The position numbers and the translations under genes were made by a program. From assembly GCA_029565065.1 (NCBI GenBank), contig JAKQOW010000018.1:4043-68042 (forward strand): 64,000 bases of DNA, written 5' to 3'. The notes under the pieces were generated by a model. The model saw only the letters and a list, made by a program, of their open reading frames with translations. It was not told where the DNA came from and did no database searches. Source of the stretch: Acidobacteriota bacterium (lineage in GTDB: Bacteria > Acidobacteriota > JAAYUB01). Numbering within the stretch: position 1 is the first letter of the stretch; every line of letters starts with the position of its first letter. Positions 32,804 to 43,810 of the stretch are shown here, one piece after another.

Positions 32804-33889
32804 TCAGACCGTGTATCGGTGGATCCGGAAGTTGATCAGCAGACCCATGGCCATGAACGCGGTGACCACCGACGAGCCGCCCCAACTAAGCGGCGGCAAG
32901 GGGATTCCGATCACCGGCATCAAGCCGAGGGTCATGCCGACGTTGATGGCCAGGTGCACGGCGTAGAGCGCAATGATGCCCGCGCTCGCATACATGGCCA
33001 TTCGATCCGAGGTTTCCATCGCGATCGCCAGGCCGCGCTGAAAGATCGCCCCATACAGCAGCAGCACCAGCACGGCGCCAATGAAACCCGTTTCCTCACC
33101 GACTACCGCATAGATGAAGTCGGTGTGGCGCTCGGGCAAGAAGCCCAGTGCCCCCTGACTGCCCTCGCCCAGTCCGCGTCCGGTGAATCCGCCGGATCCA
33201 ATGGCGATGACTGACTGGATGGTCTGGTATCCGGTGCCCTTTGGATCACGGCCCGGATCGGCGAGGACAAGAATCCGCTCTTTCTGGTAATCCCGGAGGA
33301 CGAACCAGGAGCTGGCCAGGAGCAGGATCAATATGACACCCGCCAGCGCCACCACCCGCTTGCGAATTCCCGCCAGCAGGATCAGCACGATGAACACGGG
33401 CATCATCGTCAGGGCTGTCCCGAGATCGCGTTGGAGGATGATCATGCCCGTTGGCACCAGCATGATCAGGCCGGCAACCAGCAGAGTGACCGGGCGCAGA
33501 TACCGTTCGGGATAGTCCGCCAGAAACTTGGCCAAGGTCAGGATGATGACCAGCTTGACCACCTCCGAAGGCTGGAATGTCACTCCGCCGAGCCGCAACC
33601 AGCTCTTGGACCCGTGGATCTCCACGCCGATCAGGAGCACCACGGCCAGAACCAGCACCGACAGAGCGTACAGGATCCAGATGTGGTTCAGGACGACGCG
33701 GTAGTCCACCCACAGCACCGCCACGAACAGCAGCATTCCCAAGCCGAGGCGCACCAGATGCTTCTCCAGGTAAGGCGAATCCCCCGCCACCTGCGTGGAG
33801 TAGTAGATCTCGACACAGCCGATCAGGCAGAGCATCAGGAAGGCTCCGACCAGTATCTTGTCGAACTGCCGCCAGTCTTTATTGCCCAT
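32804..33889 (-). CDS. rodA: rod shape-determining protein RodA (SEDS family)
   Basis: 361 aa polytopic; FQPSEVVKLVIILTLAKFL, ERHTDFIYAVVGEETGFIGA typical FtsW/RodA motifs. Confidence 0.85.
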   Translation of the reverse strand: MGNKDWRQFDKILVGAFLMLCLIGCVEIYYSTQVAGDSPYLEKHLVRLGLGMLLFVAVLWVDYRVVLNHIWILYALSVLVLAVVLLIGVEIHGSKSWLRLGGVTFQPSEVVKLVIILTLAKFLADYPERYLRPVTLLVAGLIMLVPTGMIILQRDLGTALTMMPVFIVLILLAGIRKRVVALAGVILILLLASSWFVLRDYQKERILVLADPGRDPKGTGYQTIQSVIAIGSGGFTGRGLGEGSQGALGFLPERHTDFIYAVVGEETGFIGAVLVLLLYGAIFQRGLAIAMETSDRMAMYASAGIIALYAVHLAINVGMTLGLMPVIGIPLPPLSWGGSSVVTAFMAMGLLINFRIHRYTV

Positions 33890-35693
33890 GGCGCGCCTCG
33901 ACCAATCGATCGGCTCCCGGCGGGGGGTAAAGTTCGAAGTACTTGCGCATCACTTCCCCCGCGATGGGCGCGGCGGCCGTTCCCCCGTGGCCGCCGTGTT
34001 CGATGATCACGGCCACAGCGATGCGGGGCTCGTCCACCGGCGCAAAGCAGGCGAACCAGGAATTCTCCTTGAACCGGGTCTCGTAATTTTTCAGCCGCTC
34101 GGCCGTTTCGGTGTTGATCAGCTGAGCGGTTCCGGTTTTGCCGGCGACGGTGATGCCCTCGAGCCGCGCCCGGGTGCCGGTCCCTGAATCCACCACCATC
34201 TGCATGCCTTGAACGATCCGGTGGTGCAGTGCGGCGGGCAGCAGCGACTTCCGGTCCGGCCGGGACCGGTCATCCGGCTCCAGTCGGAGCCGGGGCACCG
34301 GCGGCTCGGTGTTGAGCGCGACGGCGCACATGAACCGGGCTACCTGGATGGGGGTGACGGACACCGCGCCTTGGCCGATGGCCACCGAGATTGTCTCTCC
34401 CGAATACCATTTCTGACCAAAGACACGTTGCTTCCATTCGCTGGAAGGCATCAGGCCGGCCCGCTCCGACGGCAGGTCGACCCCGCTCTTCACGCCCAAC
34501 CCCATGCGCACCGCCCAGTGATGAATCCGATCAACGCCCAGGCGGATCCCCACATTGTAAAAATAGATGTTGCAGCTATTGGCGATGGCGTCCAACAGGC
34601 TCACCGCGCCGTGGCCTGACGCATTCCAGCAATGGACCAGCCGGCCCAGCATCATGGTTTCGCCGGTACAGCTGAACTGGGTGTCTTCGGTGATGACGCC
34701 CTCCGCCAGGGCCGCCGTCGCCACCAGAATCTTGAAAATGGAGCCGGGGGCAAAGGCGCCCTGAATTACCTTGTTCTGCAGCGGCTTGTCCGGGTCTTCG
34801 ACCAGCTGGCGCCACTGGGCCGGCGTCAACTGGTTGACGAACAGGTTGGGGTCGAACTCCGGTTTGCTGACCAGGCAATATAATTCGCCGGTTCGGACAT
34901 CCATGGCAACCAGCGCGCCTTTCTGCCCTTCCATCAACTCCTCGGCCCTGCGCTGCAGTTCCGTGTCGATGGATAAGGTGAGGTCATGGCCCTTGCTTGA
35001 CGGGATCCGCTCCACCACCTGCGTGATCTGCCCGATGCTGTTGATGAAGACCTTCTGCTGCCCCTTGTCGCCGCCGAGCATCGAGTCGTAGAATCGCTCC
35101 AGACCGGTCTTGCCGACGATATCGCCCGGCCGCCGGCTTGCGAACGCCGTCTGTTTGAGTTCCCCGGGCGTGACCTCGCCCACGTAGCCATTCAGATGCG
35201 ACGCCATGGAACCCAACAGGTAGCGGCGGGTGGGCACCCACTCGAGCGTCAGCTCGGGAAAGCGCTCGAAATGAGCTTCGGCGAACGCAATCTCGGCAAA
35301 GCTGAGCCGGTTTTTAAGCACGATGGGGAACACGGTCGGCACCCGCCGGTATTCTTCCAGCTTCCGGTCCACAAAAGCCGGGTCCAGGCCGAACCGCTCG
35401 CGCAGCACGCGGAGCAGCATCTGATGATCTTTCATGTACTCCCGGCGAAGCACCAGCGAAAACGAGATCTCGTTGTCCACCAGCAGCCGGCCTTGCCGGT
35501 CCATGATGAGGCCGCGGGGCGCAGGAAGTTCGATGATCCGGAGGCGGTTCTGCTCAGCCTTTTCCCGGTAGTAGTCCGCCCGCGTGATCTGCAGATACCA
35601 GAGCCGGCCGAACAACACCAGCAGCACGCCGCCCAGGGCCAATTCAAACAGAATCAGGCGTTTCTGGAAGAGACTGCCGCTCGGGCCGAACAT
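33879..35693 (-). CDS. mrdA: penicillin-binding protein 2 (elongasome transpeptidase)
   Basis: 604 aa; N-terminal TM; PAPRGLIMDRQGRLLVDN; SxxK (STFK-like GSIFK), SxN, KTGT motifs. Confidence 0.85.
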   Translation of the reverse strand: MFGPSGSLFQKRLILFELALGGVLLVLFGRLWYLQITRADYYREKAEQNRLRIIELPAPRGLIMDRQGRLLVDNEISFSLVLRREYMKDHQMLLRVLRERFGLDPAFVDRKLEEYRRVPTVFPIVLKNRLSFAEIAFAEAHFERFPELTLEWVPTRRYLLGSMASHLNGYVGEVTPGELKQTAFASRRPGDIVGKTGLERFYDSMLGGDKGQQKVFINSIGQITQVVERIPSSKGHDLTLSIDTELQRRAEELMEGQKGALVAMDVRTGELYCLVSKPEFDPNLFVNQLTPAQWRQLVEDPDKPLQNKVIQGAFAPGSIFKILVATAALAEGVITEDTQFSCTGETMMLGRLVHCWNASGHGAVSLLDAIANSCNIYFYNVGIRLGVDRIHHWAVRMGLGVKSGVDLPSERAGLMPSSEWKQRVFGQKWYSGETISVAIGQGAVSVTPIQVARFMCAVALNTEPPVPRLRLEPDDRSRPDRKSLLPAALHHRIVQGMQMVVDSGTGTRARLEGITVAGKTGTAQLINTETAERLKNYETRFKENSWFACFAPVDEPRIAVAVIIEHGGHGGTAAAPIAGEVMRKYFELYPPPGADRLVEARHGQ

Positions 35694-36187
35694 TATGGCT
35701 GCTCCACCTCAAACAGATCGGCGGGCGGCCGGACGATCAGCATGCGCACAACCACGTTCCCGCATGCCGTGGCGGCCGCTCCCAGCAGGAGCGGGGTGAG
35801 CGACTGGGCGGGACAGGTCTGCCCGAAGATGACAAAAAGTCCCACAACGGCCAAGTTGTTGGCGCAGGCGAGCACGAAGACAAAGAGCGACTGGAGGGCC
35901 GGGTGGTCCATGTTGATGCGCCGGCACGCGAGGCTGGACAGGAAGCCGGCCGCCATCTTGGTGGTCGCCTGAATGCCCAGCGGATAGAATGGTGACAGAG
36001 TGAGATCGTGAGCCAGACCCGCCAGCCAGCCCCGCCAGACCGACTGAAGGGGGGTCGAACGGGTGGCGGCGTGGAACGTCAGGATCAGGATGAAATCCAT
36101 GAAACGCAAAGGTGCCCACACCTGCGGCAATACATATTGCAGGCCGGTCGCCACGACCAGCAACAGGAGGAACACCCAGGTTTTCAT
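35693..36187 (-). CDS. mreD: rod shape-determining protein MreD
   Basis: 164 aa polytopic membrane protein, placed between mreC and mrdA. Confidence 0.6.
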   Translation of the reverse strand: MKTWVFLLLLVVATGLQYVLPQVWAPLRFMDFILILTFHAATRSTPLQSVWRGWLAGLAHDLTLSPFYPLGIQATTKMAAGFLSSLACRRINMDHPALQSLFVFVLACANNLAVVGLFVIFGQTCPAQSLTPLLLGAAATACGNVVVRMLIVRPPADLFEVEQP

Positions 36188-37011
36188 GGCGCCGCTCCGG
36201 CCGTGCGCTTCAACACGAACACGTACCGGCAGCGGCTTGCATCCACCGCCGGCTGGACCTTGATCTCCTGGAAATACTGACCCGACTGGTCCGCCTCGAT
36301 GATGCGGCCGACGGTCAGGCCGGGTGGGAAAATGCCATCGTCACCGGAGGTGTGGATCCAATCGCCCGCCTTCACGGGTGCGGCGATGTGTACATAGTCG
36401 AACTTCAGATGATACCGTCCGGCACCGTGGATGATCCCGCGGATGCCCCGGGACTGAATGATCCCAGCCAAGGCAAACCCGGCGTTGGTCACCAGGGCGA
36501 CCTGGCTGTGTGCGAGCCCCGCAAGTTGGATCCGGCCCACCACGCCCCGCGTGTCCAACACCGGGAGATCCGGGACAACCCCGTCCTGGTAGCCGCCCCG
36601 GATGGTGAGAGTCCGGTCCCACACCTGGAAGCCGCGCATGGTGACCTCCGCCAGCACGGCATCGCGTCCGAATTCCGGCAGCACCCGCACCATGCGCTCC
36701 AGGCTGGCTGATCGGTCCAGCCGCTCTTCCATGAGCGTCTGCTGGATGCGGGCTTCAGCCAGCCGGCGCTTGAGAGCCAAGTTTTCGTCCTTGAGTTCCT
36801 TGACGGTGCGGAACGCCGACAACCAGTCGCCCAGGGCCGCCATGCCGCCGCCGGCGGCCGAGGCCAGCGGCAGAAACAGGTTGGCACAGACCGACTTCAA
36901 TACCGTCTCCCCGCGGCTGGTCTTGAACTGCAGAGACACCGCCACCAGATTCAGGACCAGCAGCGCGGACAAGAGCTGATATGATTTCAGGGACCTCAAC
37001 AGGTGGATCAT
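36184..37011 (-). CDS. mreC: rod shape-determining protein MreC
   Basis: 275 aa; N-terminal TM, coiled-coil (ENLALKRRLAEARIQQ), beta-rich C-terminal domain. Confidence 0.75.
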   Translation of the reverse strand: MIHLLRSLKSYQLLSALLVLNLVAVSLQFKTSRGETVLKSVCANLFLPLASAAGGGMAALGDWLSAFRTVKELKDENLALKRRLAEARIQQTLMEERLDRSASLERMVRVLPEFGRDAVLAEVTMRGFQVWDRTLTIRGGYQDGVVPDLPVLDTRGVVGRIQLAGLAHSQVALVTNAGFALAGIIQSRGIRGIIHGAGRYHLKFDYVHIAAPVKAGDWIHTSGDDGIFPPGLTVGRIIEADQSGQYFQEIKVQPAVDASRCRYVFVLKRTAGAAP

Positions 37012-37049
37012 GAACTCTCAAACAGAGCCGGACAGATCAAGCCGGAGCG

Positions 37050-38081
37050 TTAAATGGCCACCTTCCGCAACAGATCGAAGTTGCTGAGCATTTTGCCGAC
37101 CCCGAGAGCCACGCCGAAGAGCGGATTTTCTGCGATGAACACCGGCAGCTTGGTCTCGTCCATGATGCGCTTGTCCAGGCTCTTGAGGAGAGCGCCGCCG
37201 CCGGTCAGGACGATGCCCCGATCCACGATGTCAGCGGACAGCTCAGGCGGCGTCCGCTCCAGAGCGACGCGCAGGGCGTTGATGATCGTCGTGTTGCAGT
37301 CCGACAGCGCCTCGCGGATTTCCGAGTCGGTGATCACCAGGTTCTTGGGAATGCCGTCGATCAGGTTGCGTCCCTTGATCTCCATCGTCAGCTCTTTTTC
37401 CAGGGGGAAGGCGGAGCCGATTTCGATCTTGATCTGTTCGGAGGTTCGCTCGCCGATGAGAAGGTTGTGCTTGCGCTTGATGTACTGGATGATGGCCTCG
37501 TCCATCTCATCCCCGGCCACCTTGACCGTTCGGCTGTACACAATGCCGGAGAGGCTGATGACGGCGATATCGGTGGTGCCTCCGCCGATGTCCACAATCA
37601 TGTTTCCGGACGGCTCGGTGATCGGCAGCCCGGCGCCGATGGCGGCGGCCATCGCCTCCTCGACCAAGTAGACTTCGCTCACCTTGGCCCGAAGGGCGGA
37701 TTCCTTCACCGCCCGCTTCTCCACCTGGGTGATCTCCGACGGTACTCCGATCACCACGCGGGGGCTGATCAGATATTCCCGGTTGTGGGCTTTCTTGATG
37801 AAATACTTGAGCATCTGCTCGGTGGTGTCGAAATCGGCGATGACCCCGTCCTTCATGGGCCGGATGGCGACGATGTTGCCGGGGGTTCGGCCCAGCATCT
37901 CTTTGGCCTCGCGGCCCACCGCTTCGATGCGGTTGGTCAGCTTGTTGATGGCGACGATGGACGGCTCATTGAGCACGATGCCCTTGTTCTTGGCGTAGAC
38001 CACGGTGTTCGCCGTGCCCAAGTCGATCGCCAGGTCGGTGGAAAAGACACTGAATAGGGAACGCCAGTTCATGAGGATCAA
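37050..38081 (-). CDS. mreB: rod shape-determining protein MreB (actin homologue)
   Basis: DLAIDLGTANTVVYAKNKGIVLNEPSIVAI...DIGGGTTDIAV...LTGGGALL near-identical pattern to E. coli MreB. Confidence 0.92.
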   Translation of the reverse strand: MILMNWRSLFSVFSTDLAIDLGTANTVVYAKNKGIVLNEPSIVAINKLTNRIEAVGREAKEMLGRTPGNIVAIRPMKDGVIADFDTTEQMLKYFIKKAHNREYLISPRVVIGVPSEITQVEKRAVKESALRAKVSEVYLVEEAMAAAIGAGLPITEPSGNMIVDIGGGTTDIAVISLSGIVYSRTVKVAGDEMDEAIIQYIKRKHNLLIGERTSEQIKIEIGSAFPLEKELTMEIKGRNLIDGIPKNLVITDSEIREALSDCNTTIINALRVALERTPPELSADIVDRGIVLTGGGALLKSLDKRIMDETKLPVFIAENPLFGVALGVGKMLSNFDLLRKVAI

Positions 38082-42479: not shown

Positions 42480-42509
42480 ATGACACGATCCGTGGGGTGC
42501 TGGTATAAT
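42480..42509 (+). promoter_or_regulatory. sigma-70-like promoter upstream of ECF sigma gene
   Basis: ATGACA-18 nt-TGgTATAAT (extended -10), about 33 nt upstream of ATG 42543. Confidence 0.35.
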
Positions 42510-42542: not shown

Positions 42543-43067
42543 ATGTCGGCCAATCTGCCCTCACACATCGACCTTACAAAATTGCGCGAAATATTTCTAG
42601 CGCTGGCTAAACGAAGGGTCCGCGATGAGCAGGATGCGGAAGAAATCGTGCAGGATGCGCTGATGACTGTCGTTGAAAAATCCGCTTCGCAAACCTTCGA
42701 AAAAAGCTTCCTCCAGTGGGCATTCGGCGTGCTGCGCAACAAGATCGGCAACTATTACCAGCAACGCGAGCGGCGCCATCGCACGACCGAAGAGATGACC
42801 GAGGACACGGAGCGGACGCTCCAGTCCGGTTTACCGGACCCGCTGTCAATGTCCACCGAGGCTGAACTTCGCAGCAAGATCCAGCGCTCCTGGCGGCAGC
42901 TCGGCGGCCAGTGCCGGCGGCTGTTGTGAATGCTGTACTCCGGGTATTCGCGTGAAGAGATCTTCGCCGAATTTCCCCAATATCATTTCAAGGTGGTCAA
43001 CACGAAGATCTTCCGCTGTCGGAATTACCTGCGCCGGCTGTTCCGCCAAGAGGGGTATTCACTATGA
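42543..43067 (+). pseudogene. ECF (group 4) sigma-70 factor interrupted by an in-frame TGA at 42927-42929
   Basis: Region 2 (EEIVQDALMTVVEK...FLQWAFGVLRNKIGNYY) is in ORF 42543..42929. Region 4.2 (YSGYSREEIFAEFPQYHFKVVNTKIFRCRNYLRRL) continues in the same frame right after the TGA (ATG 42930) up to TGA 43065-43067. An alignment-contiguous sigma factor is split by a single stop codon. Confidence 0.55.
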
Positions 43068-43810
43068 ACTGTCGTGACAGCCGAATCAAGCGGCTGCTGC
43101 CTCTCTACGAAGCCGGGCTGCTCAATCTCCAGGAAGCCGGCGAGGTGGAGACGCATCTCCTGTCGTGCCCCGGCTGTGCCGAGGAGATGTTTGCGATGCA
43201 GCCGGTGATAACCGCTATCCGGGGAATGGAAAGTCCGCTGGACTCGGTCGAGGAGCCCGGCTTCCTGGTGCGGTTTGTCTCGTTGCGCTGGGCCAGCGTG
43301 GCCACCGCGGCCGCATTGCTGGTGGTGGTCTGCACGTCCGCCTGGCTGTTGCTGCCCGGTTGGCTGTCCACGCCGCCCTACCCGCCGGCAGCCGATCTGG
43401 CGCGCTCCCTGCAGCATCTGGAGCAGATGGGCATGGACGACTATGCCAGCTTGACGCCGAGCGATTCCCGGTTCGTCACCGCGCTGGGCTTGTTTCGGCA
43501 AAACCGGGCCCGCGACGCGCTGGCGGCCGTGACACCCGCGCTGCCACCCGTCGGTCAGTCCTCGCCGGCCGTACACCTGGCCGCCCGGTGCCACCTGGCG
43601 CTGGATCGGCCGGAAGCCGCCCAGCGCCTGCTGGCGCAGCATCCGGTTTCGCCTGGCGACACCCGGTACCGGGATTACCTGTGGATCCGCGCCGTGGCCT
43701 CCCTGCGCCGCGGCCGGCATGACGCCGCCATCACCGATCTGGAGGAGCTGGCCCGCCATCCGGGCGCCAACCAGGCGGCATCCGCCGATCTGCTCGAGAA
43801 GGTGCGCTGA
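43064..43810 (+). CDS. zinc-finger (zf-HC2) anti-sigma factor with membrane anchor and TPR-like periplasmic region
   Basis: THLLSCPGCAEE = H-x3-C-x2-C ZAS motif at N-terminus; TM VATAAALLVVVCTSAWLLL; ATGA overlap with the sigma gene end. Confidence 0.6.
   Translation: MNCRDSRIKRLLPLYEAGLLNLQEAGEVETHLLSCPGCAEEMFAMQPVITAIRGMESPLDSVEEPGFLVRFVSLRWASVATAAALLVVVCTSAWLLLPGWLSTPPYPPAADLARSLQHLEQMGMDDYASLTPSDSRFVTALGLFRQNRARDALAAVTPALPPVGQSSPAVHLAARCHLALDRPEAAQRLLAQHPVSPGDTRYRDYLWIRAVASLRRGRHDAAITDLEELARHPGANQAASADLLEKVR

Follow-up and report, generated by a model that had tools for sequence, protein, structure and literature searches.

Does the ECF sigma factor locus at positions 42543-43067 of the window (the whole 64,000-nucleotide stretch of DNA analysed) represent an intact gene misread in assembly, two cooperating genes, a gene whose stop codon is decoded as an amino acid, or a gene in the course of being lost? 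The sequence and the ORF list of the window show a 128-codon ORF that runs from the ATG at 42543 to a TGA at 42927-42929, with the C-terminus ..QLGGQCRRLL, followed in the same frame by a 45-codon ORF (MLYSGYSREEIF...RRLFRQEGYSL) that opens at the very next codon, the ATG at 42930, and closes at the TGA at 43065-43067. With Trp in place of the stop, the full-length translation spanning codon 129 reads ..RRLLWMLYSGYSR.. The 45-codon ORF and the following 248-aa anti-sigma ORF (43064-43810) share an ATGA overlap. An earlier sequence-only reading had described a sigma factor split by a single in-frame TGA with the frame resuming at the next codon, and a ZAS anti-sigma (HLLSCPGC) overlapping the end of the sigma gene; all of its coordinates were confirmed, as was the anti-sigma ORF, which matches zf-HC2. 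The features of the locus are as follows.

42480..42509, plus strand: sigma-70-type promoter-like site, ATGACA, 18 nt, TG-n-TATAAT (11/12 consensus match, extended -10).
42543..42929, plus strand: 5' fragment of the ECF sigma gene, from sigma2 through the linker into sigma4 helix 1, of which it includes the first half; 128 aa (Pfam Sigma70_r2, E 1.6e-9; codons 1-128 100% identical to the intact allele in contigs L014, L016, L017 and L018).
42927..42929, plus strand: premature TGA in place of the Trp codon 129 (TGG), by G-to-A at 42929 (homologue alignment and related contigs at the DNA level).
42930..43067, plus strand: cut-off 3' fragment with the remaining sigma4 including the helix-turn-helix, 45 codons from the ancestral Met130 (alignment to sigma4 of AlgU, RpoE, SigH and SigW).
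43019, plus strand: synonymous, window-private C-to-T, Cys159 TGC to TGT (C in all other alleles and relatives).
43041, plus strand: non-synonymous, window-private C-to-T, L167F (Leu invariant in the family alignment A3; the ENA TGA allele keeps Leu).
43050..43055, plus strand: GAGGGG, Shine-Dalgarno-like, 8 nt ahead of the ATG of the anti-sigma gene (read from the sequence).
43064..43810, plus strand: intact anti-sigma of the zinc-binding type, with an N-terminal H-x3-C-x2-C, a single hydrophobic stretch that probably spans the membrane, and a TPR domain at the C-terminus (Pfam zf-HC2, TPR_19).

The family to which the disrupted gene belongs was determined from its domains and relatives. In Pfam, the 5' ORF matched Sigma70_r2 (PF04542, E 1.6e-9, 37.9 bits with the cut-off at 24), and the 45-aa piece gave no match to the r4 models (Sigma70_r4 and r4_2), either alone or merged with the 5' ORF. 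A search with the merged protein found 18 relatives, mostly 174-175 aa, that align end to end through the stop, in agreement with the earlier view of an otherwise contiguous sigma factor; this speaks against a chance ORF pattern. A profile alignment of eleven full-length family members (A3), searched against the PDB, matched solved ECF sigma structures, namely 6in7_B (AlgU/sigma-H), SigH, SigW, RpoE and CnrH, over positions 14-166 with E-values down to 7e-8. The intact allele exceeds the cut-off of NCBIfam TIGR02937 (sigma70-ECF superfamily) with 47.7 against 42.9 bits, and no specific NCBIfam subfamily was matched above cut-off. With regard to ECF (group IV) membership, sigma2 is present, as is sigma4, without sigma1.1 or sigma3; the single uninterrupted frame for both domains is absent in the window and present in near-identical strains. 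Because the family profile matches ECF structures and the intact allele passes TIGR02937, the locus is, on the strength of these matches, an ordinary ECF sigma/ZAS-type anti-sigma pair with a divergent sigma4.

The profile alignment also locates the break. In 6in7_B, the residue opposite the stop is the Leu of ..ALTLREFEGLS.., part of the first helix of sigma4 (region 4.1). Since the stop aligns within sigma4 helix 1, the break cuts domain 4 and does not fall between the domains, which corrects the earlier statement that region 2 ends at the TGA. The sigma4 of this small family has two invariant cysteines, C124 of helix 1 (QCRRLLW) and C159 of the recognition helix (FRCRNYL), which could form a redox-sensitive pair. 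According to A3, the family is spread over Acidobacteriota, with distant relatives in Ignavibacteria.

Analysis of the downstream gene indicated an anti-sigma factor with a Pfam zf-HC2 domain (PF13490, E 2.5e-6, 27.9 bits with the cut-off at 22.2) and TPR_19/TPR repeats. The sequence HLLSCPGC corresponds to H31-x3-C35-x2-C38. As in ZAS-type anti-sigma factors, this motif is N-terminal and the gene adjoins the sigma gene; zinc binding is predicted. Fifteen public contigs code for this 248-aa protein without any residue changed.

Comparison with homologues revealed which codon the stop has replaced. Among the 14 homologues covering the site, the residue at the stop position is Trp in 12 and Gly in two, and all 12 distinct related contigs read at the DNA level (L002-L006, L014 and L016-L022) carry TGG. 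The sequence-only reading had proposed asking which residue orthologues have at this position, and the alignment answers with Trp, encoded by TGG. Because the relatives read TGG there, the stop is attributed to a single G-to-A transition at 42929, giving W129*. A metagenome pattern scan that permitted either TGA or TGG at the site added four contigs, each of which carries TGG. At the species level, the relatives are Acidobacteriota MAGs of anaerobic membrane bioreactors and sludge digesters, and DNA identity to the window is 92.7% for L005 and 84% for L004.

The TGA allele was found on three contigs only, those for which the 128-aa product is on record: the NCBI contig of the window (80,208 bp) and two ENA contigs. 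One of them, contig k141_14148 of ENA assembly ERZ27257490 (L001/L015, 69.7 kb), is the only ENA contig with TGA that was compared at the DNA level; the third TGA-bearing contig encodes the same two fragments according to its protein records. The intact 174-aa protein (P0022) is encoded on 13 contigs, and close variants on a further 52 and 18. Four contigs (L014, L016, L017 and L018), from four other samples (ERZ773360, SRR5168924, SRR4236650 and SRR4236664), show 99.87-99.97% DNA identity to the window, a difference at about 0.05% of bases, and an identical anti-sigma protein, together with an intact 174-aa sigma gene.

We therefore favour, with a probability of roughly 80%, the reading that W129* is a genuine nonsense mutation of very recent origin in an otherwise ordinary ECF sigma gene, which would make the locus a pseudogene in the making. 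The allele would be an ordinary young loss-of-function mutation. The sequence-only reading had left four options unranked. Among these, recent pseudogenisation gained support from the TGG orthologues, the intact near-identical strains and L167F at an invariant residue; a sequencing or assembly error and a two-piece sigma factor lost ground, and read-through is possible at a basal level. Under the favoured reading, the G-to-A transition at 42929 would have arisen in one population of an uncultured anaerobic-digester species of Acidobacteriota, where the allele would segregate. Translation would stop within sigma4 helix 1, so that the main product would be sigma2 without the -35-recognising helix-turn-helix, and this truncated sigma would presumably be unable to direct transcription of the ECF regulon. 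The promoter and the downstream anti-sigma gene would have been left untouched, with anti-sigma probably still being produced, and the 3' fragment would then have begun to accumulate changes in the lineage of the window.

The signals for expression of the locus are consistent with this course. The promoter-like site ATGACA-18-TGGTATAAT at 42480-42509 does not differ between the window and the intact allele. Of five aligned relatives, four retain its -10 element (TGnTATAAT), L005, L004 and L006 among them. Because this site is near-consensus and unchanged and its -10 is conserved, the sigma locus is probably still transcribed. A near-consensus promoter of the housekeeping type with an extended -10 is unusual ahead of an ECF sigma gene; many such genes control their own expression through an ECF-type promoter. 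With regard to the downstream gene, we infer that translation of the anti-sigma need not be coupled to that of the sigma ORF. Because it has its own GAGGGG ribosome-binding site and an unchanged sequence, the anti-sigma is probably still made and would now be partnerless.

Comparison of the alleles revealed a nested series. At codon 129, position 43019 and position 43041, the intact allele reads TGG, C and C, the ENA contig TGA, C and C, and the window TGA, T and T. The changes at 43019 and 43041 were found in no relative, and both lie inside the 135-bp stretch downstream of the stop; the F167 version of the 45-aa fragment has no record in the contig index. In intact relatives, no part of the gene is under stronger constraint than the 3' fragment, which has dN/dS of 0-0.02 and, per pairwise comparison, 0-1 non-synonymous against 2-16 synonymous differences. 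The window has four private SNVs in the 20.7 kb compared, two of which lie within the 3' fragment. Finding two of four private SNVs in 135 of 20,747 bp has a probability of about 3e-4 if the SNVs are independent and of about 0.01 if the pair counts as one event among two. The three-haplotype comparison showed that SNVs of this population come in tight pairs, and because of this pairing the enrichment is suggestive and not proof of relaxed selection. These two substitutions, which are the whole of the evidence for decay, suggest that the 3' fragment is starting to decay in the lineage of the window.

An alternative that we regard as unlikely is a leaky hypomorph, in which UGA is read by near-cognate Trp-tRNA at a useful rate, restoring Trp129 and making W129* a low-expression allele rather than a null one. 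Given that the codon originally specified Trp, misreading by tRNA-Trp would yield the wild-type protein; the promoter is intact, and the stop stands in the context UGA-A. In PMC9122581, which cites Engelberg-Kulka 1981, UGA is given as the stop most readily misread by tRNA-Trp, with a 3' A (UGA-A) leaky in E. coli, and translated bacterial pseudogenes are documented (PMC9122581; PMC7918605). Against a useful rate of read-through, the stop occurs in no relative, nothing points to selection or programming, no stimulatory structure follows the stop, and the later L167F at an invariant downstream residue would be unexpected under continued selection. Basal read-through of stop codons is typically low. 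With respect to programmed read-through, the stop was found in three near-identical contigs only, with L167F downstream of it in the window. Thus, of the read-through suggested by the sequence-only reading, a basal level remains plausible given UGA-A and the ancestral Trp, and a conserved or programmed event does not. If read-through did matter, the allele would show that a Trp-to-UGA mutation can be phenotypically soft. A stronger version, which we consider distinctly improbable, is that W129* is a selected 'dimmer', in which tRNA-Trp would restore Trp129 at a low rate in the leaky UGA-A context, so that this lineage would keep a strongly down-tuned ECF response alongside full anti-sigma expression, with the free sigma2 fragment possibly competing for core RNA polymerase.

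A sequencing or assembly error, in which the true codon would be TGG and the gene intact, is very unlikely. The window is a single base away from the near-identical strains at this site, and the TGA contigs may come from a single study; indeed, the window assembly and the ENA assemblies may derive from overlapping read sets. On the other side, comparison of k141_14148 with the window revealed 12 differences and no indels in 20,747 aligned bases, so the ENA assembly is not a copy, and the occurrence of the same A at 42929 in it makes a random consensus error very improbable. The same two fragments are encoded on a third contig, and the 20.7 kb around the site contain no indel or other disruptive change relative to intact strains. 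The distinct TGA assembly and the third contig thus turn the balance against the error that the sequence-only reading had allowed for, and in favour of a real nonsense allele. The haplotypes of the window, L014 and L015 are mosaic relative to one another, and strain differences are tightly clustered at 33281-33308, 52707-52761 and 52928-52933. The mosaic haplotypes and clustered SNVs suggest either that strains recombine within the population or that the assemblies are consensus sequences of mixed strains.

A functional two-piece sigma factor, in which translation would stop at UGA and re-initiate at the adjoining AUG so that sigma2 and sigma4 polypeptides cooperate like SigO-RsoA of B. subtilis, has a still smaller chance of being correct. 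The stop and the start abut in UGAAUG, a geometry that allows termination-reinitiation, and split ECF sigma factors do exist, as PMC7826278 reports for SigO-RsoA. Against this, the break lies inside sigma4 helix 1 instead of the linker that joins the domains, the ATG corresponds to the ancestral Met130, also seen in intact genes (WMLY or WLLY), and no Shine-Dalgarno-like motif precedes the ATG at 42930. Furthermore, no split relative was found among the members covering the site and the contigs read at the DNA level, and the allele is confined to three near-identical contigs. The break within a helix, the unsplit relatives and the ancestral Met130 together weigh against this option of the earlier reading.

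Recoding of the TGA, whether by selenocysteine insertion or by genome-wide reassignment, is supported by nothing beyond the in-frame TGA itself and can practically be dismissed, as orthologues have Trp rather than Cys or Sec and 34 of 50 long ORFs end in TGA, with Trp written as TGG. The SECIS element that the sequence-only reading had proposed to look for downstream of the stop did not appear: the 81 nt at 42920-43000 fold no better than shuffled sequences (z = -1.07), the homologues have Trp or Gly, and a gathering-threshold Rfam scan of the whole window gave no family match. Reassignment of TGA (tables 4 and 25) was likewise rejected, since TGA ends 34 of the 50 ORFs of at least 150 aa, the Pfam-supported ones of RodA, MreC, PanC and the anti-sigma among them, and TGG is used for Trp in long ORFs at a G+C content of 64%; the same stop-codon census upholds the earlier judgement that genome-wide recoding is unlikely. 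No tRNA genes were found in the window.

The remainder of the window contains two further gene groups. At 48743-53460, according to the gene calls of L014, lies a cluster whose products resemble components of a flagellum or type III secretion system, here in an Acidobacteriota MAG: besides another sigma factor with regions 2 and 4 (238 aa), it codes for one protein like FliG_C, one like FliH/SctL and one of 774 aa that combines FHA, YscD-like and TPR parts. On the minus strand at 32804-38081 is a cell-shape operon, mreB-mreC-(164-aa ORF)-PBP2-rodA; neighbouring genes encode a GGDEF protein and one with a FecR domain.

Taken as a young nonsense allele, the two ORFs of 42543-43067 are best annotated as a single pseudogene or disrupted ECF sigma allele, not as two genes and not as a case of recoding. 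The locus would then present gene loss caught in mid-course within a metagenomic population, with three states side by side in public assemblies: the wild type, W129* by itself, and W129* joined by substitutions further downstream. The significance beyond annotation is small.

The allele resembles young bacterial pseudogenes made by a single nonsense transition, among them 'pseudo-pseudogenes' with residual translation (PMC9122581; PMC7918605), in its stop created by G-to-A, its intact mRNA signals, its nearly undamaged ORF and the possibility of near-cognate read-through. In the cases of PMC7918605, the in-frame stops are conserved and are argued to be read through, whereas the stop of the window is not conserved across lineages. 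With SigO-RsoA (2009 work, as cited in PMC7826278), the locus shares sigma2-like and sigma4-like parts on two adjacent ORFs. SigO and RsoA are separate conserved genes with a whole domain each, while in the window a point mutation that is absent from relatives cuts a sigma4 helix. The closest likeness in overall design is to group IV (ECF) sigma factors with a co-transcribed ZAS anti-sigma, such as RpoE/ChrR, SigH/RshA and SigW/RsiW, with which the locus has in common sigma2 and sigma4, the ATGA overlap, the H-x3-C-x2-C motif, a hydrophobic segment and an outer TPR domain. In contrast to these pairs, the sigma gene of the window is broken by W129*, and the sigma4 of its family is divergent, with two invariant Cys.
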